Shown here: positions 9,165 through 64,000 of the stretch, piece by piece
Layout: every line of letters starts with the position of its first letter
Position numbering within the stretch: the stretch's first letter is position 1
Assembly (NCBI GenBank): GCA_965233585.1
Contig: CBDDTI010000746.1
Location: forward strand, 121,905 to 185,904
DNA: 64,000 nt
Reading direction: 5' to 3'
Source of the DNA: a bacterium
GTDB lineage: Bacteria > SAR324 > NAC60-12
Notes under the pieces: model-generated
Seen by the model: the letters and a program-made list of their open reading frames with translations, nothing else
The model's database searches: none
What the model was told of the DNA's origin: nothing
Made by a program: the position numbers and the translations under genes

Positions 9165-9179
9165 TCTTTATTTTTAATA

Positions 9180-10127: not shown

Positions 10128-10149
10128 TTATCAATATATCAAATAGATT

Positions 10150-10809: not shown

Positions 10810-10833
10810 GATTTTTTCTAAAAATTTGTGTTA

Positions 10834-12866: not shown

Positions 12867-12941
12867 AGTATCAATTAAAATTTTTATAGAATTACAACTG
12901 AACGATGATATATCTTTTAAAAAGTTTTATTATGAATTGTA

Positions 12942-13769: not shown

Positions 13770-13805
13770 AGCATTTTTATGAATCTAACATATTTGATAG
13801 TTTTT

Positions 13806-14924: not shown

Positions 14925-14925
14925 T

Positions 14926-16071: not shown

Positions 16072-16267
16072 GCGATTCCTTCAATAATAAATCTAAACAG
16101 GTTTGGTATTTAAGTCTTCTTTAGAATCTATTTCTACCCAACCTCCTTCTATGTAAATTGGAGTAGCATCTAATAAATTATCTATGATCAATTGAAGAAA
16201 ACTTGTCATATGCATCTCATTCATCGAGTAATGTCGTAATTTTTTTGTAAATCAGAGAAGTTAAACC

Positions 16268-17209: not shown

Positions 17210-17211
17210 GT

Positions 17212-42684: not shown

Positions 42685-43842
42685 TCATTGCTGATTTGGG
42701 TTGACAGGAGACAATTCTTGAGCGATGGCTAAATGCCCATAATACTTGGCAAGTTCATAGGGAGTTTGAGATTGTTGATTGGCTAGGGTCGGGTCTGCAC
42801 CTGCTTTGAGCAACAATTTAACAATGTCATAAGCACCAGTGCGGGAGGCAAAGGCAAGGGCTGTCATTCCTGTTGAAGATTGATTGTTCACAGAAACTCC
42901 TTGCTTTAATAATTCTTGTGCAATTTGAAAGCGTTGGTATTCTGCTGCTAGCATTAAAGCTGTGTAACGTTCTTGGTCTTGTTGATTCAGGTTTGCTCCT
43001 GCTTTGATTGCAAGCAATGCAATGTCATCGTGCGATTGAGCAATAGAAAGCATGAGGGCAGTTGTTCCATCATTTCTTTGTAGGTTGATGTCAGCACCTG
43101 CTTTGAGCAACCACTGAAAGATGTCTTTTTTTCCTGAAAAAGCGGCAACCATCAAAAGACTCCAGCCTTCAGCATTTTGCAAATTGAGACTCCAGCCTTG
43201 TTGATAAAGTGCTTGTAAAACAAACTGATTCCCAGAATCAACGGCTTGTAGCATCTGTTGCCAGATTTGTTGTTTTTGTTGTTTTTGAGTTTTGTTGCGT
43301 TCTTGTCCCACTTCAAGAGCAATCAGTTCTTGCACGACATCTGTTCGGCTTTGTGATTTAGCAAGGGCAAGAGCCGTCTGGTCATCATCGTTTTCAAGGG
43401 TTAAATCTGCGCCTGAGGTGGCTAACATGCGCACCAAATCTAAATGCCCTGCATAAGAGGCAATCATTAAAGCAGTCCAATCTTCATGGTCTTGTAAATC
43501 CAAAGAAGCACCTGAATCTATCAAGACCCTAGCGATTGCAGTATCCCCTTGCATTGCCGCAACCATCAGAGCCGTCCAGCTTTCTTTGCTGATGGCATTG
43601 ACCTTGGCTTTCCTCTGAATCAACAGCCGAACGATTTCTAAGTGTTGATGAAAAACGGAGACAATCAATAATGACCTGCCGTCTCGGTCTTTGGAATCAA
43701 CAGAGATGCCTTGATCCAAAAAATTTTTGACCAACTCAATGTCTCCATTTGCTACTGCACTAAAAATCTGGGTAGTGGCGAAAACCTGCCATGTGAAGAA
43801 ATTTAATGAGATGAAGATGAGGAAAACACGTAGAAACATCAT
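42685..43842 (-). CDS. Secreted ankyrin-repeat protein (~10 ANK repeats) with an N-terminal signal peptide
   Basis: Repeated ...G.tALM.A...GH..iv..LL..GAd.n motifs. The signal peptide is MMFLRVFLIFISLNFFTWQVFA. The start overlaps the topA stop (ATGA). Confidence 0.85.
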   Translation of the reverse strand: MMFLRVFLIFISLNFFTWQVFATTQIFSAVANGDIELVKNFLDQGISVDSKDRDGRSLLIVSVFHQHLEIVRLLIQRKAKVNAISKESWTALMVAAMQGDTAIARVLIDSGASLDLQDHEDWTALMIASYAGHLDLVRMLATSGADLTLENDDDQTALALAKSQSRTDVVQELIALEVGQERNKTQKQQKQQIWQQMLQAVDSGNQFVLQALYQQGWSLNLQNAEGWSLLMVAAFSGKKDIFQWLLKAGADINLQRNDGTTALMLSIAQSHDDIALLAIKAGANLNQQDQERYTALMLAAEYQRFQIAQELLKQGVSVNNQSSTGMTALAFASRTGAYDIVKLLLKAGADPTLANQQSQTPYELAKYYGHLAIAQELSPVNPNQQ

Positions 43843-46256
43843 GGTTGATTGATGACGTGTTCATACTCTTCTGGCTCGGCTTCATATTGACATTGCTCGG
43901 CAGGACACAAGACTGTCGTCTTCGTTTTGTTTTCTTTCACGGTAAGGATAGGGAACTGACAATTAGGGCATGGATGTTTGATGGGACGATTCCACAATGA
44001 GAATTTACATTTAGGATAACCTGCGCAGCTGTAAAAGATTTTTCCGCGTCTTGAACGTTTTTGTAAAATCTGTTCGTTGGAACATTCTGGGCAAAGGCAA
44101 CCTGTGTCTGTTTTTTCTTTTTTGATGTATTTACAACTTGGGTATGTTTCGCAAGCAATAAAAGCACCATAACGTCCCTGCCTTTTCGCCAGTCCTGCAT
44201 TGCAGTTTTCACATGTCCCCTCTACTTTTTCTGGGGCTTGAGCATTCAGAGGTTTGGTGTTTTTACATTTGGGATAATTCTGACAAGCGGCAAACTTCCC
44301 AAATCTTCCTGTCTTGATGACCATTTCGCCTCCGCACTTCTCGCATGGTTCATCTGACACTTGAACGTCTTGAAATCTGGGATTGCCTTGTTCATCAAAC
44401 TCTACTTCTGCAGTAAAAGGGCATTCAGGATATGCGGAACAACTCAAAAAATCTCCATTTTTCCCCCAACGTAGCAACATGACTTCTCCACATTTTTTAC
44501 ATGGAATGTCTGTTGGCTTGGTCTCTCGCTTCAGATTCCGCATCTGGCTTTTGGCTAGTGTCAGATGTTTGGAAAACTCCTTGTAAAATTGAGAAATGAC
44601 ATCTACCCAGTTGGCTTGACTGGCTTCAATGTTGTCAAGTTCCTTTTCCATGTTTGCAGTGAAGTCAACATTGATAAAATCAGAAAAATTTTCAATTAAC
44701 AATCCATTGACTCGTATGCCGATTTGGGTAGGTTCAAAACGTTTTTTGTCATTGATTTCAACATATTCACGTTTGGTGATGACTTCCATAATGGCAGTGA
44801 ATGTGCTTGGACGACCGATTTCTAGTTCTTCTAATTCCTTAATCAAAGAAGCAGGTCCATAGCGTGGCGGAGGTTCAGTAAAATGTTGAGAAGGCAAAAA
44901 GTTTTGCACCGTCAAGATTTCTCCTTCTTGGACATCAGGCAAGAGTTTCTCCTTGTCATCGTCACTATTTTCGGTGTTGTAAAGCGTCAAAAAACCTGCA
45001 AACTTCAACACAGAACCACTTGCACGCCAGAGATAGTCGCCTGTTTGGACTTCTATTTGAGTTTGGTCAAACAAAGCTGATGTCATTTGGGAGGCAACAA
45101 AACGTTTCCAAATCAACTCATATAATTTTTGTTGTTCCCGATTAAGGAATGATGCTGTTTCTTCAGGGGTTTGATTGACATTTGTAGGACGCACTGCCTC
45201 ATGGGCATCTTGATTCCCTTTTTTAGAATATTGATTTGCTGTTTTAGGGCAAAAGGAATTGCCAAATTTCTTCTTAATCAAAGACCTGACTTCTTGAACT
45301 GCTGTGTCAGAAACACGGACAGAGTCTGTCCTCATATAAGTAATGAGTCCTCCCATCTTTTCATCAACACCTTCATAGAGTTGTTGTGCAATCCGCATAC
45401 AGCGGCTACTTGAAAATCCTAGTTTATTGATGGCATCTTGTTGAAGTGTGGAAGTGATGAATGGAGGGGGGGGCTTCCTAGAACGTTGTTTTTTCACCAC
45501 TTGAGAGATGACAAATTGTTCTTTTGAAACTTCACTTAAAATGACTTTGACTTCTTCTTCGCTGCGAATGACTGCTTTGTTTTGGTCTTTACTGTGAATG
45601 TCAATGGTTTTTCCCTGATGCTTCGCAAGTCTGATTTCAAGGGGAGCTTCTTGGCTTGTGGTTGTTTGAGCATGAATTTTCCAATATTCTTCTGACTGGA
45701 ATTTTCTGATTTCTTCTTCCCTTTCACAAATCAACCTTAATGCCACAGATTGCACCCTGCCTGCACTCAAACGATAGCGCACCCTCTCCCAAAGCAAAGG
45801 GCTAATTTGATAACCCACTAAACGGTCTAAGACCCTGCGTGCTTTTTGGGCGTCATATTTAGAAAAATTAAGTTCTTGGGGGTGTTCAAGGGCATCTAAG
45901 ATCGTGTGTTTTGTAATTTCGTGGAGTAGTAGCCTGTATATCTTTCCTGAAAACACTCCTTGAATTTCTTCTGCCAAATGAGCAGCAATGGCTTCCCCTT
46001 CACGGTCAGGGTCAGAGGCAAGAAAAATATTTTTGGCAGATTTGGCAGCTTTGCGAATGTTACGAATGACATCGCTTTTGCTCTTCATCACTTGGTATTG
46101 GGGTGCAAAGTTGTCGTCTATGCTGACACCAAGTTCTTTTTTGGGGAGGTCTTTGATGTGTCCAATAGAAGCGAGGACTTGATAATCTTTGCCAAGATAA
46201 CGATTGATTGTTTTAGCTTTGGCTGGTGATTCTACGATGATAAGTGATTTTGGCAT
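43839..46256 (-). CDS. topA: DNA topoisomerase I
   Basis: 805 aa. It has the Toprim and topo IA core, and C-terminal C4 zinc ribbons (CxxCGxxM...C motifs repeated). Confidence 0.9.
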   Translation of the reverse strand: MPKSLIIVESPAKAKTINRYLGKDYQVLASIGHIKDLPKKELGVSIDDNFAPQYQVMKSKSDVIRNIRKAAKSAKNIFLASDPDREGEAIAAHLAEEIQGVFSGKIYRLLLHEITKHTILDALEHPQELNFSKYDAQKARRVLDRLVGYQISPLLWERVRYRLSAGRVQSVALRLICEREEEIRKFQSEEYWKIHAQTTTSQEAPLEIRLAKHQGKTIDIHSKDQNKAVIRSEEEVKVILSEVSKEQFVISQVVKKQRSRKPPPPFITSTLQQDAINKLGFSSSRCMRIAQQLYEGVDEKMGGLITYMRTDSVRVSDTAVQEVRSLIKKKFGNSFCPKTANQYSKKGNQDAHEAVRPTNVNQTPEETASFLNREQQKLYELIWKRFVASQMTSALFDQTQIEVQTGDYLWRASGSVLKFAGFLTLYNTENSDDDKEKLLPDVQEGEILTVQNFLPSQHFTEPPPRYGPASLIKELEELEIGRPSTFTAIMEVITKREYVEINDKKRFEPTQIGIRVNGLLIENFSDFINVDFTANMEKELDNIEASQANWVDVISQFYKEFSKHLTLAKSQMRNLKRETKPTDIPCKKCGEVMLLRWGKNGDFLSCSAYPECPFTAEVEFDEQGNPRFQDVQVSDEPCEKCGGEMVIKTGRFGKFAACQNYPKCKNTKPLNAQAPEKVEGTCENCNAGLAKRQGRYGAFIACETYPSCKYIKKEKTDTGCLCPECSNEQILQKRSRRGKIFYSCAGYPKCKFSLWNRPIKHPCPNCQFPILTVKENKTKTTVLCPAEQCQYEAEPEEYEHVINQP

Positions 46257-51309: not shown

Positions 51310-52413
51310 CTACCTCCCAAACTTGATTAAAAGCATGTCCTCATTTCCTGAATTGGTGTGTCCATCAAAATTTCCTCCAGAGAATCCTGTCACGTAAACA
51401 TTGCCTGCTGAATCCACACTCACTCCCTTTCCTGCATCACTACTGGTAGTGCCAAGCAACTTAGACCTTTTTTTGACACCTGAAGTATCATACTTGATTA
51501 AAAATATGTCAAAGTCTCCTGAATGGGTCTTTCCATCAAAAGCTCCTGAAGAGCTTCCTGTCACGTAAACATTGCCTACTGAATCCACACTCACTCCATT
51601 TCCTGCATCACTACTGGTAGTGCCAAGCAGTTTTGACCACTGCTTGTTGCCTGAAGTATCATACTTGATTAAAAACATATCCTTACCTCCTGAATTGGTC
51701 TGTCCATCAAAGGCTCCTGCAGAGAATCCTGTCACGTAAACATTGCCTGAAGCATCCACACTCACTCCATGTCCTCTATCATCACCGCTAGTGCCAAGCA
51801 GTTTTGACCACTGCTTGTTGCCTGAACTGTCATACTTGATTAAAAACATGTCCTCTTTTCCTGAATTGGTCTTTGTATCAAAAGCTCCTTTAGAATATCC
51901 TGTCACGTAAACATTGCCTGCTGAATCTACACTCACTCCTAATCCGTCATCACGAGATCGACTGCCAAGCAGTTCAGACCATTGTTTAGCCAAGTGTTCA
52001 GCAATGGCTTGGTTGTGGCAAGCCCATTCAGAAGCAGAAGTCTTGCCTGATGCTTTCACACGAACGCAGAGTTTGTCTTTGGCAATGGCATCATCTCCAA
52101 AACTAAAAGGGCTGCTGCAATCAGTAGGAGTTGTGCCTCCATCTTTGGAACATTGATAGCTTTGCCCTGAAGTGGTGGCAAAGGTCAAGGTTCTGCCTGA
52201 AATAGCAAGAGAAGTTGGCGGCTTTGGTGGCTTGGTAGCTTCAGCAGTGTTGTCATCTGATGGACTACGTTTGTCAGTGCAAGAAACGAGGACACTGAGA
52301 CCAAGCAGGACTGAACATTTCTTCAAAGAAGAAGGTTTAAGAAATGATGCAAAAGCATCGGTGCAGGCAACAAGTGCTTTGATAAACGTTTTGATTGTAT
52401 GACGTGCAAACAT
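51310..52413 (-). CDS. Surface lipoprotein with four SBBP beta-propeller repeats. It is a member of a paralogous modular lipoprotein family
   Basis: The signal peptide with lipobox is LVSC. Four repeats read GNVYVTG(Y/F)S.GAFDG.TNSG..DMFLIKYD.SGNKQWSKLLGT (PF06739-like). The N-terminal 40 aa and an internal 58-aa module are near-identical at nucleotide level to the gene at 61833. Confidence 0.8.
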   Translation of the reverse strand: MFARHTIKTFIKALVACTDAFASFLKPSSLKKCSVLLGLSVLVSCTDKRSPSDDNTAEATKPPKPPTSLAISGRTLTFATTSGQSYQCSKDGGTTPTDCSSPFSFGDDAIAKDKLCVRVKASGKTSASEWACHNQAIAEHLAKQWSELLGSRSRDDGLGVSVDSAGNVYVTGYSKGAFDTKTNSGKEDMFLIKYDSSGNKQWSKLLGTSGDDRGHGVSVDASGNVYVTGFSAGAFDGQTNSGGKDMFLIKYDTSGNKQWSKLLGTTSSDAGNGVSVDSVGNVYVTGSSSGAFDGKTHSGDFDIFLIKYDTSGVKKRSKLLGTTSSDAGKGVSVDSAGNVYVTGFSGGNFDGHTNSGNEDMLLIKFGR

Positions 52414-52437
52414 TTGATGGACTCCATTTAGAGGTTA

Positions 52438-52518
52438 GATAAAAAAACAACATTCAACACAATGAATGTCGTCATGGTAAAACTCTTGGTTTGAAAAAAA
52501 ACATCATCTGATTTTCAA
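52438..52518 (-). promoter_or_regulatory. Conserved 5' leader of the SBBP lipoprotein gene. Hairpin 1 is 52491-52518. A terminator-like hairpin 2 with a T-run is 52438-52469 and ends 24 nt before the ATG
   Basis: On the coding strand, TTGAAAA...TTTTCAA forms stem 1 and ACATTCA-ttgtgt-TGAATGT followed by TGTTTTTTTA forms stem 2. Upstream is the conserved GGCTTGTAT-T10-GTACTTGCATAGT promoter-like block (52545-52580). Confidence 0.5.
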
Positions 52519-52748
52519 GGAAAAGAGTTGAATAAAAACCAAAGCTATACTATGCAAGTACAAAAAAAAAATACAAGCCACGACTTAGAATATTTGAAGT
52601 TTTCTTGAGTTGGTGTAATTTTTGTCAAGAGAAGGAAGGACTGGCAAAAAGTGGTCAAGTTTGGGGTTAAAAAGTTTTTTCAATATAAATTTTGAATATT
52701 TGACAAGTTTTTGCTATACTTCGAAGATTTTGCATTGCCTAATAAATC

Positions 52749-53807
52749 ATGGATTTGAGAGAGCAGTTTGAGACGGTCTTTTGTTCTATCCCCTATGGAA
52801 CATCTGGTCAAAATTTGATTGATGCTGAAGTGGTGCATGGTTGCATCATCAATGAAGATTTTGCAAAGGTGACGCTGATTGTGCCAAATCATCTTTTGCA
52901 TGCAGAGTTGTCCCATGTTGTCAAAGACAAGCTGACAGCGATTCCAGAGATCAACCGTGTGGCTATTGAGTTTCTTGACCAAGCACCTGCTGAAGAACCC
53001 CACAGTTCCAAGCCTTCTACCAAGCTCAAAAAGCCTTCTTCAGTGCTTTATCTTGAGGAGTATAAAGAAGTGATTGCCGTTGCCAGTGGCAAAGGCGGGG
53101 TGGGGAAGTCCACGGTGGCAGTCAATCTTGCGATTGCTTTGGCACAAATGGATTATCAAGTCAGCTTGTTTGATGCAGATATTTTTGGACCAAGTCTGCC
53201 AATGATGCTGAACATACGCAATGAACGTCCAACCACTGTCAAAAATCGTATCTTGCCAATCAAACAGTATGGCATTCAAACTATGTCTATTGGGAATTTG
53301 ATTGAAGAGCAGTCGTCTGTGATTTGGCGTGGTCCGATGGTGCATCAAGCGATTCAGCAGTTGTTGCGTGATACCAACTGGACAGGTGGAGATTTTATGA
53401 TCATTGACCTACCACCTGGAACGGGAGACGCCCAGCTCACTCTTTCGCAAAGTGTTCAGATTTCTGGTGCAGTGATTGTCTCCACGCCTCAAGATGTTGC
53501 ACTACTTGATGCTAGAAAAGCAATCAATATGTTTGAAAAAGTGGATGTGGAAGTCTTGGGCTTGGTTGAAAATATGAGTTCTTTCATCTGTCCTCATTGC
53601 CAGACGGCTTCTCATATCTTCGGAAAACATGGGGCAAAGCAAGAAAGCGAACGTTTAGACATTCCCTTCTTAGGCTCAATTCCACTTGAGCTAGCAGTGA
53701 GAGAAGGTGGAGACTCTGGTGAACCTGTTGTTACTCAAAAACAAAGCACTCCTGCAAAAGATGCTTTTTTTGAACTAGCAACAGCATTATCTGACATTTT
53801 ATCTTAA
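52749..53807 (+). CDS. apbC: Fe-S cluster carrier ATPase Mrp/ApbC/NBP35 with an N-terminal DUF59-like domain
   Basis: VASGKGGVGKSTVAVNLAIALA is the deviant Walker A. C-terminal CPHC motif. Confidence 0.9.
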   Translation: MDLREQFETVFCSIPYGTSGQNLIDAEVVHGCIINEDFAKVTLIVPNHLLHAELSHVVKDKLTAIPEINRVAIEFLDQAPAEEPHSSKPSTKLKKPSSVLYLEEYKEVIAVASGKGGVGKSTVAVNLAIALAQMDYQVSLFDADIFGPSLPMMLNIRNERPTTVKNRILPIKQYGIQTMSIGNLIEEQSSVIWRGPMVHQAIQQLLRDTNWTGGDFMIIDLPPGTGDAQLTLSQSVQISGAVIVSTPQDVALLDARKAINMFEKVDVEVLGLVENMSSFICPHCQTASHIFGKHGAKQESERLDIPFLGSIPLELAVREGGDSGEPVVTQKQSTPAKDAFFELATALSDILS

Positions 53808-53831
53808 ACTTTTCTTTCCTTTGAGGTTTTA

Positions 53832-55613
53832 GTGAATTCTTTTTTTAAAAATATCGGCTTATGGCTGATGATTGGTTTATCATTCCTTTTAGGTTTCATG
53901 TTTTTTGGTGAAAGCCAGCCAACTGCAGGGAACCACGTTGCATTTTCTGAATTTATGACAGACTTGGAGAGGGGAAACATCACAGGGGTTGTTGTGAGAA
54001 GCAATGAATTACTGGGGATTCGTCTTGACAAAAGCGTCGTGCAAACACTTGCACCTGACTATCCCAATCTCATCAGTGATCTTGAAAAGCAACAAGTGAC
54101 AATTCAAGTAGAACCGACCGAGACACGTAGCTTATTCCTTGCCATACTCAACAGCTGGCTGCCTATCTTATTGATTGTGGGCATCTGGGTTTTCTTTGTC
54201 CGACAAGTCCAAGGCAACGCAGGGAAGGCGCTGGGCTTTCAAAAAATGAAGCTCCCTTCTACTGATGGTGCAGACAAAACCGTGACGTTCCAAGATGTTG
54301 CAGGAATTGATGAAGCCAAAGAAGAGCTTTCGGAGATTGTAGATTTTCTGGCAGACCCCAAAAAATTTAGTGAACTTGGAGGCGAGATTCCAAGAGGCGC
54401 CTTGCTCATTGGCAACCCTGGCACAGGGAAAACACTCATGGCAAAGGCAATCGCAGGAGAAGCAGAAGTTCCGTTTTTTAACATCAGTGGCTCTGATTTT
54501 GTTGAAATGTTTGTTGGTGTTGGGGCAAGTCGTGTGAGAGATTTGTTTGACCAAGCCAAGAAAAGCGCACCTTGTATTATTTTTATTGATGAAATTGATG
54601 CACTTGGCAGAAGTCGTGGCTCTGGCATGGGAGGTGGACATGATGAACGTGAGCAGACCTTGAATCAATTACTGGTGGAGATGGACGGCTTTGAAGTCAA
54701 TGAAGGGATCATCGTCATTGCCGCAACCAACCGACCTGATGTGCTAGATTCTGCACTCTTGCGACCCGGACGTTTTGACAGACACATCACAATTCCCATG
54801 CCTGATATTGCAGGACGCCAAGCCATTTTAGAAGCCCATGTGAAACATGTGACATTGGCAGAAGATGTGGATTTACATGTGATTGCAAGAGGCACTCCGG
54901 GCTTTACAGGGGCAGACCTTGCTAACCTTGTCAATGAATCTGCGCTTTGGGCAGCACGTCAAAATAAAGAAGAGGTCAACAAAGATGCCTTTGAGTATGC
55001 ACGTGATAAAGTCCTGATGGGAACAGAACGCAAAACTGCATTGATCCACGAAAGCGAAAAACGCACCACTGCCTATCACGAGGCAGGACATGCCATTGTT
55101 GCTGTTGCCATTCCAGAAGTTGACCCTGTCCACAAAGTCACCATTATCCCACGTGGGCAAGCTCTTGGGGTGACTCAATTATTGCCAGAAGAAGACCGCC
55201 ACAGCTACACCCAAAAAGGATTGCTTGGACAGATTGCTATGATTATGGGAGGACGCGCTGCAGAGCATCTGGTGTTTCAACGTTTCACAACAGGTGCAAG
55301 TGATGACTTGAAAAAAGCAACAGACATCGCACAACGCATGGTGTGTCAGTGGGGAATGAGTGAAAAACTAGGACCGCTTTGCTGTTCAGATGATGAATCT
55401 AAACAAAACTATTCACAAAAATCATACAGCAATCACACTTCACAAATCATTGATTCTGAAATCAAACGTATCTTAGAACAGGCTTATGCCAGAGCCAAAG
55501 ACATTTTGACAGTACACCGAAACGTCCTTGACGAAATTGCCGATGCCCTCATGGAACAAGAAACGATTGACGGAGCCGTGGTAGAAAGCACATTCGCCAG
55601 ACACTCCTCCTGA
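53832..55613 (+). CDS. ftsH: ATP-dependent zinc metalloprotease FtsH (GTG start)
   Basis: [18 protein letters not shown] is Walker A. The SRH and the HEAGHAIV zinc motif are present. Confidence 0.95.
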
Positions 55614-55704
55614 GCTTTTTGAATCTTTCTCAAACCTCAAAAATGGGACAGAGATTGAAAATCAGGGACTCAAAGAGTTGACCGATGCCACTTCAAAAGA
55701 TTTT

Positions 55705-56415
55705 TTAATCAAAATCCCAGCCAAGAAACAACTCTAGCAAAGTATCATTTCCTGCTTTCACAGACTCATTGCCTGCTGAATCTACTGCTGTTGCACCTAA
55801 AATACAAGCACAGACAGAAACCCCTGCCATAAAGGAATCTACCTGATAGAAAAATGGCAAAACAAAGCCTAACGTCTCAAAGCCAGAGTCTTCTACTGAT
55901 TCAGAAATCTCCTGTTCGGTCTCGTTACCTCCAATAAACGTAGTCAGAGTGCCTTTGTAGGACATTTTCATGTCATTAGCAATGCCAACCCGCAACTGTG
56001 GTTGGAAAAACTCCCAAAAAGCATATCCCACGTTGACCACAAAACCTGACAGACTATAATCCATTTCTAGCTCAACTTCTTGCCTAGTTTGAAGTATTCC
56101 TCCTCCCTCACTCTCTCCAATTTTTTCCTTGCCATGAGATAAAGTCAGACTTTGAAAGCCAATTCCCCAAACCCATTCATCAACAAAAGAATATCCCACA
56201 TAAAAGGAACTCCCTGACGTTTTGACAACTTTGTCTTCAGAAATGCTTGTCACAGCTTTTTTGAAATAGGTGGTGGTTCCTGTGGCAGGACCCCCTGAAA
56301 GTTCCAAACGATCGGCAACAGACGTTGTAGTGAACATCCAAGTATTCAGCACGCCTATCAAGATTGATTTCTTTGTCAATGATTTAAATGCGTTCTTTGT
56401 AAATAATTTTTTCAT
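55705..56415 (-). CDS. Outer-membrane beta-barrel protein (OmpW/OmpA-like small porin family)
   Basis: Signal peptide, with alternating amphipathic beta-strands. 236 aa. Confidence 0.5.
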   Translation of the reverse strand: MKKLFTKNAFKSLTKKSILIGVLNTWMFTTTSVADRLELSGGPATGTTTYFKKAVTSISEDKVVKTSGSSFYVGYSFVDEWVWGIGFQSLTLSHGKEKIGESEGGGILQTRQEVELEMDYSLSGFVVNVGYAFWEFFQPQLRVGIANDMKMSYKGTLTTFIGGNETEQEISESVEDSGFETLGFVLPFFYQVDSFMAGVSVCACILGATAVDSAGNESVKAGNDTLLELFLGWDFD

Positions 56416-56560
56416 AGCGACTTGATTCTAAAAATTTTAAAAAGTGTTGGTGTTGAAAGAGATTGAAATTTTTTTAGGGAGTCGTCGTCCTTTTGTTGTT
56501 CATAACCTCTACCTATCAAGCACGATTTTTGTTTCAAAAACTTTTGCTTGTTGAGTGTCA

Positions 56561-56875
56561 TTATGCCACCTCAAGCAAATAATCATGTATCACTTTTTCT
56601 ATCAACTCATCTTCTTTCATACCTTTCTTTTTTGATTGTTCTTGAAGTTTTAAAAAATCTGTTTGCCTTATTCTACAAGAAACTTTTTTGACTTCTTCCC
56701 TCTCAACTCCCAAAGATTTGTAAAAATCATCTACTCTTTTTTGTCTTTCTTCCTCACTAAAAAAAGAAGGGGGTTGACTTTCCAAATAATCATCAATAGA
56801 GTTAGATGTTTCTATTTCATAATCATCTAACTTATACTGTTTTACAAAGGGGTGTTCTTTGTGTAATTTTTCCAT
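56561..56875 (-). CDS. brnA: BrnA-type antitoxin (ribbon-helix-helix)
   Basis: 104 aa. The C-terminus VSCRIRQTDFLKLQEQSKKKGMKEDELIEKVIHDYL resembles BrnA (vsiRlp..ll..ik..A...g.pYQslIK..L). It lies immediately downstream of the brnT-like gene. Confidence 0.6.
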   Translation of the reverse strand: MEKLHKEHPFVKQYKLDDYEIETSNSIDDYLESQPPSFFSEEERQKRVDDFYKSLGVEREEVKKVSCRIRQTDFLKLQEQSKKKGMKEDELIEKVIHDYLLEVA

Positions 56876-56881
56876 ATTGAC

Positions 56882-57172
56882 CTATTTTAAGTTATATTGT
56901 TTATTCAATTTTTGACTTGGTATGATAGTAATCAAGTTTAATACATTCTCTCTTACTTCAAAAGGAACATAATGAATATAATCATGTAAACTGATTATAA
57001 AAGATAACTGATTTGGATATTTAACTTGATTCGGTGTGAAAATTATATCTATAACTTTTCCAAGCCTTATCTCTTTCTCTACCATTTCAAAACTAACTTT
57101 CCTGACACTGTTCTTTAATATTTCATTCTTTTCTTCTTTCCATTCAATAGGAACTTCTTTTAAATTCATCAC
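56882..57172 (-). CDS. brnT: BrnT-type toxin (DUF497, RelE-like fold)
   Basis: 96 aa. VSFEMVEKEI...PNQLSFIISLHDYIHYVPFEVRENVLNLITI fits the DUF497 pattern (vsFeea..vF.d....ED.R...iG......l.vv.t.r...iRiIsaRkA). The toxin-first gene order is typical of BrnTA. Confidence 0.6.
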   Translation of the reverse strand: MMNLKEVPIEWKEEKNEILKNSVRKVSFEMVEKEIRLGKVIDIIFTPNQVKYPNQLSFIISLHDYIHYVPFEVRENVLNLITIIPSQKLNKQYNLK

Positions 57173-57253
57173 TATAAAGATTAAACGTCTATCATAATAA
57201 TCAAAAATTCTACAAAAGCAAATTTATTTCATCATCATCAAAACCTTGTTCCC

Positions 57254-57706
57254 TTATTGATTTTTTAAAGACCTTTCCATGTCACGTTGAGCAGTTTTCT
57301 TTTTAAGAGACTCCCGCTTGTCGTGAATTTTTTTGCCTTTCACCAATGCAATTTCTACTTTCACTTGACCATTTTTGAAGTACAGACTGAGAGGGACAAG
57401 CGTCAGCCCTTTCTCCCTTACCTGACCATAGAGACGTTTAATCTGGTATTTATGTAAAAGTAATTTACGACTCCTATCAGACTGATGATTCATGCGATTG
57501 CCATATTCATATTGTGCAATGTGCGTGTTCATCAAAAAAACCTCCATCATGCTATCCACTTTGCAGTAGCCATCATTGATGTTGGCTTTATTCAGCCGTA
57601 GGCTTTTGACTTCTGTGCCTTTGAGAACGATGCCTGCTTCAAACTTTTGTATGATTTCATGTTCAAAGCGTGCTTTTTTATTAGAGGCAATGATTTTCTG
57701 TCCCAT
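57254..57706 (-). CDS. smpB: SsrA-binding protein SmpB
   Basis: IAQYEYGNRMNHQSDRSRKLLLHK and the C-terminal basic tail. 150 aa. Confidence 0.9.
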   Translation of the reverse strand: MGQKIIASNKKARFEHEIIQKFEAGIVLKGTEVKSLRLNKANINDGYCKVDSMMEVFLMNTHIAQYEYGNRMNHQSDRSRKLLLHKYQIKRLYGQVREKGLTLVPLSLYFKNGQVKVEIALVKGKKIHDKRESLKKKTAQRDMERSLKNQ

Positions 57707-59069
57707 TCTCTGTTTTCAGTTTGTGTGATGCCCATTCTAAAACGCTGTCCAATGATGGAAAATGTCCTTCTAGTTGTAGTTGAAAGCTTTCCCGAATCAA
57801 TGCCCCCATAGCAGGACCAGGTGCCATGCCTAAGGCGATTAAATGCCTTCCTAAAAGCATAGGAGTAAACCCTTTTTTAGGAACTGACAACGTCTTGAAT
57901 TGGCGTCTTAACCAATCCCCTGCTGGAAAGGAACGATACATGGCATCAATCGTCGTGCGTCCAAAATGGTCTGCTTGTGCAAGCCTTAACAAATTGGGAA
58001 TGTCCACACGCAATGAAAGTCTGCGGATTGCAGAGTCTTTGATGACATGCCTTTGCTGATATAGCATAGCAGGTTGCAAATGTTCTTTGACAAAAATTTT
58101 GACGTTTTCAATGAGTTCTTTCTCATCTGTCAGCTTTCTCAAAAAAAGTTCAGTTGGTTTCATACCTAGAACATCATGTGCAGGGCTTCGCCATCTGCCA
58201 TCTTTAAAAACAGTGGTGACAGGCTTGCCAAAATCATGACACAAGGCACTGAACATCAGTTGTAAATCTTGTTTGGGGTTGCCATCACGCAATCTTGCCG
58301 CCTCGTCTATCACCATGAGTGTATGAATCCAAACATCACCTTCAGGGTGCCATTGAGGGTCTTGAGGTGTCCCAATCAATGCACCAAGCTCGTCAAAATG
58401 CTCTAAAATCCCAAGTTCATTGGCATATTGAAGACCCAGCGAAGGCTTTCTTGCAAGCAAGAATAATTTTTTAAATTCTTCAAACAAACGTTCTTTGGAA
58501 AGTTCAGCAATTTCAAGATTTCTGCAGACTGCCAGTGTTTCAGAGTCAATACGAAATTCAAAACGTCCTGCAAATTGCATCGCACGGAGTACTCGCAAGG
58601 GGTCTTCGCCAAAAGCATCAGAAATATGCTTGAGTTGTTTTTTTTGAATCGCTGTGCGTCCGTCAAAGGGGTCATGCCATTCCTCTTTGGTGGGGTCATA
58701 CCCAATGGCATTGATTGTAAAATCTCTTCTTGCTGCCGCTTCTTCAAAGGTAAAGGAAGAGTTCAGCTCTACCTCAAAAGCACGATGTCCCCTGCCAAGT
58801 TTTCTCTCTTTACGAGGCAACGAAAAATCATACTCCCTTTCTTGTGTGAAAAGTTTAAACACTCCAAAAGACTTGCCAACTTCTATGACTTGACCAAAGC
58901 GACCTAACAAAGTTTGCAAACGTTCAGCGTCAATCCCGTAGCACTCAATATCAAAATCTCCGCTTGATGACCTTCCCAAAATAAAATCACGTGTTGAACC
59001 ACCGACAAGAATCATCTTGTGAGGTTTCGCACTTTGCATGATTGCCATCAACTCTTGTGGAATATCCAT
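57681..59069 (-). CDS. cca: Class II tRNA nucleotidyltransferase with an HD domain (CCA-adding enzyme)
   Basis: The N-terminal polymerase-beta-like NT domain is LVGGSTRDFILGR...DFDIE. The HD motif is LCHDFGKP. 462 aa. Confidence 0.75.
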   Translation of the reverse strand: MDIPQELMAIMQSAKPHKMILVGGSTRDFILGRSSSGDFDIECYGIDAERLQTLLGRFGQVIEVGKSFGVFKLFTQEREYDFSLPRKERKLGRGHRAFEVELNSSFTFEEAAARRDFTINAIGYDPTKEEWHDPFDGRTAIQKKQLKHISDAFGEDPLRVLRAMQFAGRFEFRIDSETLAVCRNLEIAELSKERLFEEFKKLFLLARKPSLGLQYANELGILEHFDELGALIGTPQDPQWHPEGDVWIHTLMVIDEAARLRDGNPKQDLQLMFSALCHDFGKPVTTVFKDGRWRSPAHDVLGMKPTELFLRKLTDEKELIENVKIFVKEHLQPAMLYQQRHVIKDSAIRRLSLRVDIPNLLRLAQADHFGRTTIDAMYRSFPAGDWLRRQFKTLSVPKKGFTPMLLGRHLIALGMAPGPAMGALIRESFQLQLEGHFPSLDSVLEWASHKLKTENGTENHCL

Positions 59070-59409
59070 TTTTGCAAAAACTGTGATTGGAGTGACTTAA
59101 AACGTCTTCACAGATTCATCATCTCTGCTTAGACTGCTTTGAACCTGAAAGGTAGAGGTTAAAAAGGATAGAGGACAAAAGTGCTTTGGCTTCAGCAAAA
59201 ATGTTCTCTTCTTGACCTTGGAAAACGGGAGTAGAAACGGCTGTCTCTGTTTCTGCTTGATTGCTAAGGACGTTGTTGATATATTTCATAACTCTAGCAC
59301 TTTTTTGCTCATTGCTTGCTTTATTTCTTTCAAAAGCAAGGCATCTAGTCTAGCAGATTTTTGAGAAAAAGAAGGAGAAGCAACAAGTTTTCTGTCATTA
59401 ATAAAATTC

Positions 59410-60111
59410 ATGGATTCCAAAAAAGTCAATCAGCTGTGTGAAAAGCTGGGGTATCAGTTTGAAAATGCGCAACTCTTGGAACAAGCGATGACTCACACTT
59501 CTTACTGTTCAGGAGTGGCATCAACCCCATACCACAATGAAAGACTTGAGTTTTTAGGAGATGCCTTGCTTGAACTAGCGATTAGCGAACACTTAATGAA
59601 TGCTTACCCTCATCTGCGAGAAGGGACTTTGAGCCAAATGCGGGCAAAACTGGTCAACACAGAAAGCCTCAGTCAACTTTCAAACAAGCTAGGACTTCAT
59701 CTTTTGCTTCAATTAGGAAGGAGTGAAGAAAAATCTGGAGGCAGGAAGAAGCAGTCTATTTTAGCAGATGCCTTTGAGGCACTGATGGCGGCAGTTTATT
59801 TGGACGCCAAGCTAGACTTTGGAGTAATACGTCAGTTGTCAAAACACTTGTTTCAGGAACAAATCCAGCAATTACAGCACGTCTCTTCTCTGGACTTCAA
59901 GGGGCATTTACAGCAATACACCCAAGCCGAATTTCAAACTTTGCCTGTTTACCAGACCGTGAAGGAATCAGGTGCAGACCATGACAAACTTTTTGAAGTA
60001 GTGGTCTTAATCAATGACACCGAACATGGCAAAGGGAGTGGCAAAAGTAGAAAACAAGCAGAATTGTCTGCCGCACAATCTGCACTTGCTCAACTTCGGT
60101 TGTCAACCTGA
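59410..60111 (+). CDS. rnc: Ribonuclease III
   Basis: ERLEFLGDALLELAISEHL is the RNase III signature. There is a C-terminal dsRBD. Confidence 0.95.
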   Translation: MDSKKVNQLCEKLGYQFENAQLLEQAMTHTSYCSGVASTPYHNERLEFLGDALLELAISEHLMNAYPHLREGTLSQMRAKLVNTESLSQLSNKLGLHLLLQLGRSEEKSGGRKKQSILADAFEALMAAVYLDAKLDFGVIRQLSKHLFQEQIQQLQHVSSLDFKGHLQQYTQAEFQTLPVYQTVKESGADHDKLFEVVVLINDTEHGKGSGKSRKQAELSAAQSALAQLRLST

Positions 60112-60135
60112 CCCCTTCTTTCAAAACACAATTCC

Positions 60136-61131
60136 ATGACGTTTGACTGTTCTCCATCTATTCCAAGAGATTGGATTCTTTCGCTCATCTGTCTTACAAA
60201 CACTTCTCCATGTCTGCAAACAATTTCAGACCTTTGCCAACCCTTCGGCTTACAAATCGTGGCATGTCAAAAATTATCTTCAAATGATAGCCAAAAAAAC
60301 CATAGCACCCAAAATGACACTCAAGAACCTGATGTCTTGGAAGTCTCATTGAAACAACAAGGCTCTTTTTGCAAGCAAGAGTGGATTCATGCCTTACTTC
60401 AAAAGCATCAGCAAGGTTTGTTTGACTTCGCTGTTCAGGCGGCAACCCCCTTTTATCAAAGACCGAGATTGGTCATGTTTGATGTGGATATGACGTTCTT
60501 GCAGTGTGAAGTCATTGATGAACTGGCTTGTTTGTCAGGGGAAGATCACGCAGTGAAAGCCATCACGCATCAGACGATGTTGGGGCATCTTGATTTTAAA
60601 CAGGCACTTGAACAACGTGTCGCACTGCTCAAAGGGATTCAAGTGGGGGCAATGAATCAAATTTGCGAAAACTTACCCTATACGCAGGGGATTCAAGTCT
60701 TAGTTCCAATTCTTAAGACGATGGGTTGTGAAGTGGGCATCGTCAGTGGAGGCTTTGATTTTTTGGCAAATTGCCTGAAAAAAGAATTTGGGTTGCATCA
60801 TGCCTACGCCAACCAACTTGAAATCCAGCAAGGCAGGCTGACAGGCAGACTGCTTGGTCAAATTGTTGATGCTGACCAAAAAGGCAAGATTGTCAAAGCC
60901 ATTGCCGAGCAGCAAGGGCTTTTTCCTGAACAGGTCATCACAGTAGGCGATGGTGCAAACGATTTGCAAATGTTGCAATTTGCAGGTTTAGGAGTGGCGT
61001 TTAATGCAAAACCCGTTGTCAAGGCATCTGCAACGGGAGTCCTTTCTACTCCTGACATCAGCAGACTGCTTTATTTTTTAGGATTCTCAGCGTTTGAACA
61101 ACATCAACTCAAACAAAAACTTGGTCTTTAA
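60136..61131 (+). CDS. serB: Phosphoserine phosphatase SerB (HAD family) with an N-terminal regulatory-like extension
   Basis: LVMFDVDMTFLQCEVIDELA is the DxDxT motif. GDGANDLQML is HAD motif IV. Confidence 0.8.
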   Translation: MTFDCSPSIPRDWILSLICLTNTSPCLQTISDLCQPFGLQIVACQKLSSNDSQKNHSTQNDTQEPDVLEVSLKQQGSFCKQEWIHALLQKHQQGLFDFAVQAATPFYQRPRLVMFDVDMTFLQCEVIDELACLSGEDHAVKAITHQTMLGHLDFKQALEQRVALLKGIQVGAMNQICENLPYTQGIQVLVPILKTMGCEVGIVSGGFDFLANCLKKEFGLHHAYANQLEIQQGRLTGRLLGQIVDADQKGKIVKAIAEQQGLFPEQVITVGDGANDLQMLQFAGLGVAFNAKPVVKASATGVLSTPDISRLLYFLGFSAFEQHQLKQKLGL

Positions 61132-61254
61132 AACTCCCATAATTTTTGACCTTCAGCCTATTCATTTCCCTAGTTTCTTCACTTTCTGATTCCCCCTTTG
61201 GTGAAGGTGTGCTTGCCTTCAGCAAGTAGGGTGTTTTTTTCGTTACCACACAAC

Positions 61255-61455
61255 CGTCATTGAGGGCTTGACCCGCAATCTCTCTTGTCTTTTTCTCACT
61301 TCCCCGTCATTGCTGACCTTGAAAAAAGTCATTGCGGGACCTGACCCGCAATCTCTCTTTTATTTTTTGAGATTCCGCATCAAGTGCGGAATGACTGAGA
61401 GGTTTTGTAGGCGTGTCTTTTCGTCATTGCGGGACCTGACCCGCAATCTCCCTTG
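61255..61455. repeat. Cluster of three full copies and one half copy of a 29-32 bp palindromic REP-like repeat, plus a second small palindrome
   Basis: The copies are at 61255-61286 (degenerate), 61305-61320 (half), 61328-61359 and 61422-61455. The core ATTGCGGG-acctga-CCCGCAAT is a perfect 8-bp inverted repeat. A second palindrome, TTCCGCA-tcaag-TGCGGAA, is at 61373-61391. The spacing is irregular (50-95 bp). Confidence 0.7.
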
Positions 61456-61673
61456 TTTTTTCACAATAACCCTCATCTTTCCTGACCTCCCAATCTGCTC
61501 CTTTTTTCCTTTTTTTGAAAAATCTTCAAAACTTTTTAAAACTTTTTAAATTTTTTTCAAAACCTTTCAAACCCTTATCTTTTCTGACTTCCTGACCTTC
61601 CTCTTTTTCCAAAAAATCTTTAAAATTCCTTAAAAAACTAAAAAATGACCCAAAAATTAAAAACGTTGGCTTG

Positions 61674-61832
61674 TTTTTTTTTTTTGTACGTGCATAATGC
61701 CCGTTTTGGCTTTTCGCAAAACTCTCATCTTGAAAACAAATGAGGTTTTCATTTCAAGAGGGGAGTTTTTCGTGTGACAGCACCCGCAGGGGGTGCTGTT
61801 GTTTTGTTTCATCTCTCATTGGAGTTAATCAA
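61674..61832 (+). promoter_or_regulatory. Conserved promoter and leader of the FN3 lipoprotein gene. T12 tract, extended -10 TGCATAAT (61691-61698), hairpin 1 (61728-61759) and terminator-like hairpin 2 with a T-run (61778-61809) 23 nt before the ATG
   Basis: TCTTGAAA...TTTCAAGA is an 8-bp stem. CAGCACCC-gcagg-GGGTGCTG followed by TTGTTTTGTTT is an 8-bp GC-rich stem with a U-run. The same architecture, with different stem sequences, lies upstream of the paralog at 52413. The SD GGAG lies between hairpin 2 and the ATG. Confidence 0.5.
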
Positions 61833-64000
61833 ATGTTTGCATTTCGTACGATGAAAGTGTTCCCCAAAGCACTTGTTGCCCTCACCGATGCTTTGGCATC
61901 ATTCCTCAAACCTTCTTGCCTTAAAAAATGCTCAATCCTGCTTGGCGCCAGTGTTGTGATTGGCTGCGGTGAAGATGGTGCTGTGTCAGTGTCAGCCAAA
62001 CACACTGCCCAGACCAAGCCAGAGTCAAGCGAGTCTGTGTGTCTGGAGATTCCCCAAGCCCTGACGCAAGGCACAGGCAACCTTGCCGTCTTCAATTCAC
62101 TGGGTCAAGATGTCCTGCTGTCGTATTCCAGCAAGCTGAATACAGATGATGTGCTTGCCGTCATTGGTGCCAAGCAAAAAGGGGTCAAAGTGGACATTTC
62201 CAAAAGGACTTCTTCCATCGTCACCTTGTTCGCCTTCAAGATGCCAGCTGTCCAAGACTACTTTGAAGCAGACTGCGATGATTCCCAAATGCCAACGGCT
62301 TTTATGCAGAGTGGGTTCATTCCATCAGCCAAATCCAGTTTTGTGATAGGCACTAAAGAATCCAAGTCAGACTATGGCATGTTGCTGGTGCGAAACAATC
62401 GTGATGAGAAGGTGTCTATTTTTCAAGGCAGTTCGCAGAATCAGCAAATTGGCGTCATTGCCAGCAAGGAACTGGACTACCGAATCAAGATTCCTGTCGG
62501 TGCTAGACTGCTGATGTTTTACCCACACACAGATTCAGGAGAGATTGACTTCCAAAATCCTGTCCTTGTGAAGAACCTAGTCTTTAACAAAGATGACAAA
62601 AAACGCATCATCATTCCTGAACAACAAGTCTTGAGCGTGGCAAAAATCAACTTTACTAATTCTTCTGACCAAGATGTGATGCTGACCGTGAAGAACAGTG
62701 ATGAGGCGTTGTTTAATGTAGAATGCAGTTGTGCAGATTTTAACAAAAATTCTGTGTCAGCCAAGATGATTCTGGTCAATGGAAAGTATTATGCTGATGA
62801 CTTCTTCTTTTCTGTCATTAGTTTAGACACAGGTCAAACTTTGATTCGGAGTAAGCCTTTTCAGCTGGACAAAAACACGAATGTGAATTTTACATTGAAC
62901 AAGAATTTGACGCTGACGAAGGGCTTGGTCAATGCCGTTGTTGCGAAGAATCAAGAGCCAGAGAAGCCAGAAGACTTGAAAATCAGCCAAGTGACCTCTA
63001 ATAGTTTGCAATTAAGCTGGTCGCCTTCTGCAGACGCTGATGGCGAAGTGACAGGTTACGAAGTCTCTCACAAAACAGGCAATGGAAACTGGCAAGTCGG
63101 CACAGACACCACTCAAACAATCGTCATCGTCTCTGGTTTGCAACCTGCCACTGCCTACACCTTTCGTGTCCGTGCCAAAGATGATGAAAATGCTTGGAGT
63201 GATTATGAAGAAAGCAAACCTGTCCAGACGCTTCCTGCTGCCAACAAACCACCTGAAAAACCCAGCAACATCAGCACCAGCGATGTCACTGCAGACAGCA
63301 TCAAGGTCTCATGGACTGCTGCCACAGATTCTGACGGACAAGTGACAGGCTACGAAATCTCTTACAAAACAGGCAATGGATTCTGGTCAGGCACAAGCAC
63401 GACAGCCAACACGGCATACACCTTTCAATCGCTGCAACCTGCCACCAGCTACACTTTCCGCATTCGTGCCAAAGATGATGACGGAGATTGGAGTCCTTAC
63501 CAGACAAGCACCGCTGTCAGCACTGCACCCAATGCACCAACTTCCCTTGCAGTGTCTGCCAGAAGCCTGACCTTTATGATGACTTTAGGCAACAGCTATG
63601 AATGTTCCAAAGATGCAGGCACCACAAAAACCAACTGCAACAGCCCCTTTAGTTTTGGTGATGATGCCATTGCCAAAGACAAGCTGTGCGTCCGTGTCAA
63701 AGCATCAGGCAACACTCCCGCATCAGACTGGGCTTGCTATGACCAAGACATTGCTCAAAAAACTCCTGCTGTCAGCCAAGCAGTCACTTGGAATTTTGAC
63801 AACGGCAACAAGCCAAATGGCTTAACAGGCAACTGGTCTGTTGTCTCTGGTGGGGCAAACAGCACTTCCAAAAGCCTCAAATCTGCAAACATTGGCAGCA
63901 ATCAACAAACCTGCGTCCAAACCACACGCAATGTCTCAGCAGGAGACGTGGAATTTCAATACAAAGTCAGTTCAGAACAAAATTATGACGAACTCTTCTT
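61833..64000 (+). CDS. Partial CDS (3' end outside window): large surface lipoprotein with two fibronectin type III domains. It is a paralog of the SBBP lipoprotein in its signal peptide and one internal module
   Basis: ATG at 61833. MFAFRTMKVFPKALVALTDALASFLKPSCLKKCSILLGASVVIGCGED is a signal peptide with a VIGC lipobox. The FN3 domains at ~62967-63225 and ~63253-63525 contain LQPATAYTFRVRAKDD and LQPATSYTFRIRAKDD. The module at 63564-63737 (SLTFMMTLGNSYECSKDAGTTKTNCNSPFSFGDDAIAKDKLCVRVKASG) is ~85% nt-identical to 52021-52195. The frame is open to base 64000. The ORF track omits it because there is no stop inside the window. Confidence 0.8.
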   Translation, partial: MFAFRTMKVFPKALVALTDALASFLKPSCLKKCSILLGASVVIGCGEDGAVSVSAKHTAQTKPESSESVCLEIPQALTQGTGNLAVFNSLGQDVLLSYSSKLNTDDVLAVIGAKQKGVKVDISKRTSSIVTLFAFKMPAVQDYFEADCDDSQMPTAFMQSGFIPSAKSSFVIGTKESKSDYGMLLVRNNRDEKVSIFQGSSQNQQIGVIASKELDYRIKIPVGARLLMFYPHTDSGEIDFQNPVLVKNLVFNKDDKKRIIIPEQQVLSVAKINFTNSSDQDVMLTVKNSDEALFNVECSCADFNKNSVSAKMILVNGKYYADDFFFSVISLDTGQTLIRSKPFQLDKNTNVNFTLNKNLTLTKGLVNAVVAKNQEPEKPEDLKISQVTSNSLQLSWSPSADADGEVTGYEVSHKTGNGNWQVGTDTTQTIVIVSGLQPATAYTFRVRAKDDENAWSDYEESKPVQTLPAANKPPEKPSNISTSDVTADSIKVSWTAATDSDGQVTGYEISYKTGNGFWSGTSTTANTAYTFQSLQPATSYTFRIRAKDDDGDWSPYQTSTAVSTAPNAPTSLAVSARSLTFMMTLGNSYECSKDAGTTKTNCNSPFSFGDDAIAKDKLCVRVKASGNTPASDWACYDQDIAQKTPAVSQAVTWNFDNGNKPNGLTGNWSVVSGGANSTSKSLKSANIGSNQQTCVQTTRNVSAGDVEFQYKVSSEQNYDELF

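Follow-up and report, generated by a model that had tools for sequence, protein, structure and literature searches.

A shared 5′ cassette and an immunoglobulin-like module on unrelated scaffolds in a family of predicted lipoproteins

How do two genes with unrelated bodies come to have the same beginning and the same internal domain? The question is raised by a stretch of bacterial chromosome of 64,000 nucleotides (contig CBDDTI010000746.1, positions 121,905 to 185,904; the whole of this stretch is called the window here), in which two genes that we denote A and B lie 9.4 kb apart. An earlier description made from the letters alone (the sequence-only reading) took them for paralogous modular lipoproteins, with a common 5′ cassette and a common internal domain placed on unrelated scaffolds. 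Our analysis bears this out, finding two bounded blocks of similarity and different Pfam assignments outside them. We consider it likely that A and B are old and stable members of a modular lipoprotein family that shares a promoter, leader and signal unit together with stalk domains, and that diversifies by homologous recombination.

Two bounded blocks of similarity

Comparison of the two loci by BLASTN gives exactly two significant blocks. The first (52580-52292 in A against 61667-61954 in B) covers 289 nt at 73% identity (E 5e-39), and the second (52229-51997 against 63526-63758) covers 233 nt at 79% identity (E 3e-54). A repeat finder returned the same two as the sole inverted repeats of the window, and a third copy of either cassette was not found within the window. 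The edges of the blocks are sharp. Identity is 37% in the 60 nt that follow the lipobox cysteine, 35% in the 60 nt before the module and 25% in the 60 nt after it. Thus on alignment the cassettes stand clearly above their flanks, as had been supposed.

At the 5′ end the homology extends from position -167 through codon 45, which encodes the lipobox cysteine. The 167 nt upstream of the two genes are 70.5% identical (shuffled sequences average 51% and never exceed 55%); farther upstream identity is 57%, no better than shuffles. Over the 45 signal codons the nucleotide identity is 76%, with 32 of 45 residues the same in the proteins. The similarity is therefore lower than first described, when the 5′ untranslated regions were called near-identical and the first ~40 codons ~85% identical. 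In the second block the core of the module, comprising 77 codons, is 79% identical in nucleotides, and a longer stretch of protein (residues 50-139 of A and 554-642 of B) matches at 61 of 90 residues. Thus the sharing of a module was correctly recognized, but its size was given as 58 amino acids where the true extent is 77-90.

How old are these blocks? By the method of Nei and Gojobori the synonymous divergence (dS) of the signal block is 0.49 and the nonsynonymous divergence (dN) 0.23 (dN/dS 0.46), while for the module dS is 0.66 and dN 0.16 (dN/dS 0.24). In both blocks variation is greatest at third codon positions (64-69% identity). These values indicate that the blocks are translated, that they are under purifying selection, and that they are old. 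With so large a dS the sharing between A and B cannot be ascribed to recent exchange. The proposal of recent recombination or shuffling thus fails for this pair; it stands for the wider family, in which blocks of 100% identity and mosaic genes are found. The upstream region, at 70.5%, is more alike than the synonymous sites (56-64% identity), and on that comparison it appears to be constrained too.

The module of A is closer to those of two SBBP-type paralogs (79% to P0003 and 72% to P0005, in the numbering used here for family members) than to that of B, to which it is only 67% identical. It has therefore not moved between A and B, and is better regarded as a domain of the family as a whole.

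Outside the blocks the two proteins have nothing in common, as the sequence-only reading had stated. Gene A contains four stretches of SBBP propeller repeats (Pfam PF06739, E 9.9e-36, 121.9 bits against a gathering cutoff of 20.5), and gene B two FN3 domains (PF00041, E 7.9e-35, 119.4 bits against a cutoff of 25). Residues 46-372 of B belong to no Pfam family at E <= 0.01; this N-terminal domain is also present in the paralogs P0158, P0001, P0159 and P0161, and partly in P0160. Over its 722 codons in the window B agrees exactly with residues 1-722 of P0002, a database protein of 1204 amino acids; past the end of the window P0002 has a Kelch propeller and, for the second time, the family-specific repeat domain.

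The C-terminus of A (...LLIKFGR) is intact, and the same ending is found in the SBBP-type paralogs P0003, P0005 and P0037. These are longer than A by 173-263 amino acids, and Pfam lists 5-7 stretches in them. Compared among themselves, the SBBP repeats of A are 78-84% identical in nucleotides, with dS of 0.14-0.37 and dN about equal to or greater than dS. This pattern points to unequal recombination, to relaxed or diversifying selection, or to a decaying copy.

The 5′ cassette and the Ig-like module

The cassette begins with a promoter-like block of 32 nt. Its pattern, TGGCTTG-T(A)T10/T12-GTAC(T/G)TGCATA(G/A)T, occurs just twice in the window, against an expectation of 0 from shuffles. Within it are the T-tracts (T10 at 52562-52571 and T12 at 61674-61685, in gene orientation); no other homopolymer of the window reaches 10 nt. 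The tracts are held in the same register, with 12 nt separating CTTG and GTAC in A and B alike, and in A the tract is interrupted to read T-A-T10. A plausible reading of the block is a sigma-70 promoter with -35 elements TTGTAT (A) and TTGTTT (B), -10 elements CATAGT (A) and CATAAT (B), and the T-tract as the spacer. A sigma-54 reading of TGGC...TTGCA was rejected on the GG-to-GC spacing, which is 24 nt instead of 10-11. At the position of a spacer, the T10 and T12 tracts are candidates for slipped-strand variation of expression.

A leader of ~130 nt follows in each gene. Folded independently, the leaders form the same two stem-loops, with z-scores of -1.95 (A) and -3.7 (B); the comparison is one of two sequences only. 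The inner stem of hairpin 2 is wholly different in sequence, UUCA/UGAA in A and GCACCC/GGGUGC in B, with the pairing kept in both. The U-run that follows this hairpin is placed ~25 nt ahead of the ribosome site in both leaders, and the GGAG lies 8 nt before the ATG in both genes, covered by a short CUCU...GGAG pairing. Hairpin 2 may act as an attenuator or generate a short leader RNA. It is not the terminator of an upstream gene in the case of A, whose upstream neighbour is divergent. A conserved leader peptide is also excluded, since A has an 11-codon open reading frame (ORF) ending in TGA and B an in-frame ATG at 61740, with unrelated sequences. No Rfam family reached its gathering score in the window, and the sub-threshold matches to the leaders were miRNA and snoRNA models, which we take as noise.

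Both signal peptides end in a lipobox, as had been noted, and the shared sequence stops exactly at its cysteine (LVSC in A, VIGC in B). Lipoboxes were read by eye, as [LVI][ASTVI][GAS]C terminating a hydrophobic segment that follows positive charges, and were found in both genes as ...LKKCSVLLGLSVLVSC (A) and ...LKKCSILLGASVVIGC (B). At 45 residues the signal peptide is unusually long. A conserved extension of 30 residues (…ALVA.TDA.ASFLKPS…) precedes KK, the hydrophobic core and the lipobox, and a second signal type in the family, found in P0005 and P0159, has a similar …ASVVKPS… extension. The changes within the extension include synonymous-only ones, and the deposited protein P0167 has the same ATG start as our call for gene A; both points indicate that the extension is translated. 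Translation of A from farther downstream, at the TTG of Leu30, was rejected as an alternative, given that B has CTT there, that codons 1-29 show synonymous-only changes, and that P0167 uses the ATG. The mature N-termini are acidic at +2 to +5 (CTDK, CGED and CSSDD). The signal cassette is also the source of two antisense ORFs, one over each gene. Both exist as reported, and their mutual likeness is that of the reverse frame of the conserved cassette, in keeping with the view that they are by-products.

What kind of domain is the module? Neither copy in the window matches a Pfam family at E <= 1, and a PDB sequence search with the module profile gave nothing significant. An AlphaFold model of the module alone, calculated from an alignment of 26 relatives, is a small beta-sandwich with a pLDDT of 91. 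Within the full-length model of gene A the same region has a pLDDT of 50-70; the module-alone model used the deeper alignment. Foldseek matches the model to the C-terminal immunoglobulin-like (Ig-like) domain of chitobiase (1c7t, 1qba and 9joq) with probability 0.98-0.99, TM 0.58-0.61 and E ~0.3, and to many FN3 domains with weak E-values. Distant sequence relatives of the module match Big_13 (5 of 26) and CHB_HEX_C (5 of 26), and also Y_Y_Y. As modelled, the module is a lineage-specific Ig/FN3-like domain with four conserved cysteines, of the ordinary extracellular spacer kind.

The family, its mosaics and rival explanations

How widespread is the family? An exhaustive search of 1.8 billion representative proteins with hidden Markov model profiles of the two cassettes gave 36 matches, of which seven were close, and five more members came from a subsequent search with B at full length. 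These relatives emerged from the exhaustive search; a word-index search with the first 145 amino acids of A returned no homolog. Thus further members, whose existence the sequence-only reading had left to be checked, are plainly present, amounting to at least 13 proteins on four large contigs. The contig that holds the window (830,719 bp; this and the other large contigs are in NCBI/ENA) carries A, B (P0002), P0158, P0160, P0161, P0005 and P0037. P0003, P0159 and the more distant P0010 are on a contig of 1,073,512 bp, P0001 on one of 620,666 bp, and P0004 and P0006 on one of 256,417 bp. Two short contigs in ENA, of 8,119 and 8,777 bp, carry P0162 and P0007, respectively.

At 90% clustering FtsH and 8 of the 10 other window proteins checked are singletons, confined to the 830,719-bp contig. 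Identity to the next FtsH is just 68%, so that the collection holds no sister strain, and no close relative of this bacterium was found in any collection searched. Given this, the simplest view is that the four large contigs come from one assembly and that the family members on them are paralogs; most likely, the 13 or more members would all reside in the same genome. The nearest named FtsH relatives belong to the SAR324 cluster and ‘Lambdaproteobacteria’, at 63-66% identity, and suggest a tentative placement near the SAR324 cluster.

Signals and bodies are combined freely in the family. Signal type 1 (MFA...ASFLKPS.LKKCS...) is found on SBBP-type A and P0003 and on Kelch-type B, P0158 and P0001, and type 2 (MQKFINRC...) on SBBP-type P0005 and P0037 and Kelch-type P0159. 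Other members have ordinary short lipoprotein signals, making at least three signal types. The bodies combine the family N-terminal domain with 1-5 FN3 domains and 0-6 modules (six in P0160). The heads are SBBP, Kelch, RCC1 or other propellers; one member contains a LamG domain, and the metagenome protein P0007 an M23 peptidase domain. Some members are without a signal peptide, among them P0161 and P0160 (both of which start inside the N-terminal domain) and P0001 (fused across an intergenic region). They may be pseudogenes or partial donor copies, or their starts may have been called wrongly. The same read-through peptide, MNLISHITYSLTIP, opens both P0004 and P0160.

A number of the members are mosaics. 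In P0004 a stretch of 288 amino acids, which includes translated non-coding sequence upstream of the real start, is 100% identical to P0001; beyond it P0004 is almost the same as B through the module. P0162, encoded on a metagenome contig, is the same as P0004 for 311 amino acids, whereupon SBBP repeats replace the Kelch-type body; the switch point is inside the module, after SPFSFG. In P0001 a B-like gene is broken within the module, between …FGDDAIA and ELDPQSH…, and fused to a P0004-like gene. Back-translation of the protein indicates that this junction (…ELDPQSH…) appears to read through a repetitive extragenic palindrome-like (REP-like) element. Within the window such elements are confined to the 700-nt spacer upstream of B, with 3 matches against 0.01 expected, and they may mark intergenic regions or breakpoints of the family. 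Exact runs of 30-67 residues connect the FN3 domains or modules of many other pairs of members, and the module of B has exact runs of 40-58 residues in common with P0158, P0004 and P0161. Gene A has no exact run of 30 or more residues in common with any member. Its body is closest to P0003 (75%) and P0005 (69%), while its signal matches that of B and P0005 has the other type. This discordance requires at least one old swap of a 5′ end by recombination. Blocks of 100% identity in paralogs, with breakpoints in or beside the module, show that shuffling is ongoing in the family.

The explanation we favour would run as follows. A and B would carry one expression and export cassette, consisting of the promoter-like block, the two-stem-loop leader of ~130 nt, the GGAG and the 45-residue signal peptide. 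By analogy with the Borrelia erp genes this would most likely confer common regulation, and a common Sec/Lgt/LspA route of export and lipidation. The module, predicted to be a small disulfide-containing Ig/FN3-like beta-sandwich, would together with the FN3 domains probably form a stalk or spacer for binding heads, these being SBBP, Kelch, RCC1 or other propellers. The likeness of A and B would then date from an old duplication or domain-shuffling event and have been kept by purifying selection, while in the family at large mosaic genes would still arise by homologous recombination between conserved stalk modules and upstream regions.

Several points weigh against this reading. The mosaics were recognized by comparison of paralogs at the level of protein, and the membership of a single genome was deduced from clustering data. 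The promoter assignment draws on a weak match to consensus, and a consensus promoter scanner called the block in neither A nor B. A and B are lipoproteins by virtue of a predicted lipobox, their lipidation, localisation and expression being likewise predictions from sequence. Lastly, with four SBBP blades, fewer than its longer paralogs, gene A may be a decaying copy.

Could A and B once have been homologous along their whole length, the blocks being simply the parts under the strongest constraint, with no shuffling at all? A dS of 0.5-0.66 does fit old blocks under purifying selection, but we think such a plain duplication highly improbable. The bodies differ in fold, A having an SBBP propeller where B has an unknown domain, FN3 domains and a Kelch propeller; the module begins at residue 63 in A and at 566 in B; identity becomes random within 60 nt of the block edges; and the body of A is 69% identical to that of P0005, which has the other signal type, while its signal matches that of B, so that at least one recombination is required. 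We reject a chance or low-complexity match, for which the AT-rich upstream context is the sole argument, on the E-values of 5e-39 and 3e-54 and on a block pattern with an expectation of 0 in shuffles. An assembly artefact is rejected with it, as both reading frames are intact and the copies have diverged, and so do not represent a collapsed repeat.

A programmed system of phase or antigenic variation would be of more consequence. Slippage in the promoter T-tract would switch or tune individual members, and recombination of the module and 5′ cassette with partial or silent copies would change the heads. The two long T-tracts of the window do fall at homologous positions in the promoter-like blocks of both genes, and switching by a promoter poly-A tract has a precedent in the vlp genes of Mycoplasma hyorhinis (PMC10502178). 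The breakpoints of the mosaic paralogs fall in the module; there are 5′-truncated or fused copies without a signal peptide (P0160, P0161 and the P0001 fusion); SBBP-type paralogs vary in repeat number, from four in A to more in the longer relatives; and the metagenome variants P0162 and P0007 differ in architecture. Against this, the cassettes of the window are just 76-79% identical, with a dS of 0.5-0.66. In switching families the 5′ regions are generally far closer in sequence than this. The two tracts have the same 12-nt spacing and that of A is interrupted, which suggests a fixed length of spacer. The two genes lie scattered among genes of housekeeping function (Mrp, FtsH, SerB-like) and form no expression-site array. 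No recombinase or invertase was found among the ORFs annotated around A and B (not every ORF of the window was scanned), and neither inversion sites nor a silent-cassette array are evident among the ORFs read near them. We therefore regard programmed variation as unlikely. In one form it would be a contingency system for surface lipoproteins in a deep-branching and possibly host-associated bacterium whose nearest named relatives are SAR324-cluster genomes, combining poly-T switching or tuning, leader attenuation and a role for the module as a movable recombination site through which expressed and truncated copies exchange propeller heads. This is doubtful in our view; if true, it would place such a system outside the host-restricted pathogens in which these mechanisms are known.

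The similarity of the A-B pair is itself old and ordinary, with no sign of active variation in the window. The wider interest lies in the family. Recombining lipoprotein families that share promoter and leader are known mainly from spirochetes and mycoplasmas, and this one would be a chromosomal case in an almost unsampled lineage. The 5′ cassette, with its long T-tract block, structured leader and long signal peptide, is a defined unit suited to the study of co-regulation or phase variation. A new subfamily of Ig-like domains marks the recombination breakpoints, and the family provides a natural set of domain-swapped proteins in which the exchange of binding heads can be studied.

The window and comparison with known systems

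The coordinates of the features of A and B are collected in Table 1. Between the two genes lie those for Mrp, FtsH, SmpB, the CCA enzyme, RNase III and a HAD phosphatase.

Table 1. Positions in the window of genes A and B, their domains and their 5′ elements
Feature	Position	Strand	Basis or remark
Gene A	51310..52413	(-)	367 aa; intact ORF
A, four SBBP beta-propeller repeats	51313..51987	(-)	Pfam PF06739; direct-repeat family D1; period 171 nt
A, Ig-like module, aa 63-139	51997..52227	(-)	four conserved Cys; 79% nt identical to B copy
Antisense ORF over A cassette	52172..52402	(+)	by-product, not a gene
A, lipobox Cys45	52279-52281	(-)	
A, signal peptide, 45 codons, MFARHTIKTFIKALVACTDAFASFLKPSSLKKCSVLLGLSVLVSC	52279..52413	(-)	translation; lipobox L-V-S-C
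A, leader	52414..52545	(-)	RNA fold, terminator-like scan, alignment to B leader
A, ribosome site GGAG	52422-52425	(-)	CUCU..GGAG mini-hairpin over site
A, hairpin 2, terminator-like, then U-run	52446-52473	(-)	terminator-like scan
A, hairpin 1	52481-52529	(-)	RNA fold
A, promoter-like block, TGGCTTGTA-T10-GTACTTGCATAGT	52549..52580	(-)	29/32 identical to B block
REP-like palindromic element, three copies (core ATTGCGGG-ACCTGA-CCCGCAAT)	61264..61477	(+)	direct-repeat family D10
B, promoter-like block, TGGCTTG-T12-GTACGTGCATAAT	61667..61698	(+)	29/32 identical to A block
B, leader	61701..61832	(+)	RNA fold, terminator-like scan
B, hairpin 1	61718-61769	(+)	RNA fold
B, hairpin 2, terminator-like, then U-rich run	61774-61802	(+)	terminator-like scan
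B, ribosome site GGAG	61821-61824	(+)	
Antisense ORF over B cassette, twin of that over A	61829..62095	(-)	by-product
Gene B	61833..>64000	(+)	intact ORF, 722 codons inside window
B, signal peptide, 45 codons	61833..61967	(+)	lipobox V-I-G-C
B, family-specific N-terminal domain, aa 46-372	61968..62948	(+)	no Pfam match at E <= 0.01
B, two FN3 domains	62958..63518	(+)	Pfam PF00041; direct-repeat families D9, D13
B, Ig-like module, aa 566-642	63528..63758	(+)	79% nt identical to A copy
B, family-specific repeat domain, start	63774..64000	(+)	no Pfam match here; window end cuts domain

Other parts of the window have features of their own. Positions 1-18000 have a GC content of 29-37%, against ~40% elsewhere, and encode on the minus strand sugar-modifying enzymes that include two DegT-type aminotransferases, an epimerase/dehydratase, a short-chain dehydrogenase and a methyltransferase; this is probably a surface-polysaccharide cluster. 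Within 578-4009, segments of 140-300 nt recur at offsets of ~1.4 and ~2.1 kb with 75-90% identity, in ORFs without a Pfam match. A 385-amino acid ankyrin-repeat protein is encoded at 42685-43842 (-), directly downstream of topA and with the two ORFs overlapping by 4 nt, and hints at a host-associated lifestyle. The topoisomerase I ORF contains a run of G8 (C8 on the coding strand) at 45466-45473, unusual at 40% GC. The interval between FtsH and SmpB (55705-57172, minus strand) holds three ORFs without a Pfam match, one encoding a 236-amino acid protein with an N-terminal signal-like segment, and the adjacent ORFs, of 104 and 96 amino acids, having a toxin-antitoxin-like arrangement.

With which known systems can the A/B family be compared? 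A conserved 5′ region and signal peptide are kept in lipoprotein families of the Vlp, Vsp, Vpma and Vsa type. Vsp, Vpma and Vsa use site-specific invertases within one locus; the ORFs annotated around A and B include no such enzyme. In M. hyorhinis the vlp genes are switched through a promoter poly-A tract and vary in size through internal repeats (PMC10502178). The A/B family is like Vlp in being a multigene family of predicted lipoproteins, in the homopolymeric tract of the putative promoter region (T10 in A and T12 in B) and in varying in size through internal repeats. However, ON/OFF switching is proven for Vlp whereas the A/B family is known here from sequence, and in place of short repetitive tails the mature A/B proteins are globular and multi-domain, with 5′ cassettes that are only ~76% identical.

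At the level of single domains there are other relatives. Gene A resembles the LipL53-family of Leptospira (NF047494, an equivalog) in being a predicted lipoprotein with SBBP propeller repeats (PF06739), but it scores 144.6 bits against that model, under the cutoff of 400, and the repeat region alone aligns; moreover it has just four blades and the additional Ig-like module. In its modelled fold the module resembles the C-terminal Ig-like domain of chitobiase (CHB_HEX_C) and Big_13, from which the copies in the window stand apart as a subfamily peculiar to this lineage, with four conserved cysteines.

The closest analogue is the Erp family of Borrelia burgdorferi (OspE/F-related, with its ‘upstream homology box’), in which the promoter/operator, the leader peptide and the first residues of the mature protein are conserved ahead of diverse and often unrelated mature domains (PMC10016077). 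These genes recombine frequently, and their shared 5′ unit leads to co-expression (PMC10016077). As in Erp, the homology of A and B at this end is confined to the upstream region and the leader peptide, ending at the lipobox cysteine. The likeness is one of functional analogy only, since the A/B cassettes have no sequence relationship to erp. The erp genes occupy allelic sites on the cp32 prophage plasmids of a spirochete, whereas the A/B family is chromosomal and dispersed among housekeeping genes. Unlike Erp, its members are large multi-domain proteins built from FN3, Ig-like and propeller domains, with a signal peptide of 45 residues, and they share an internal domain as well.

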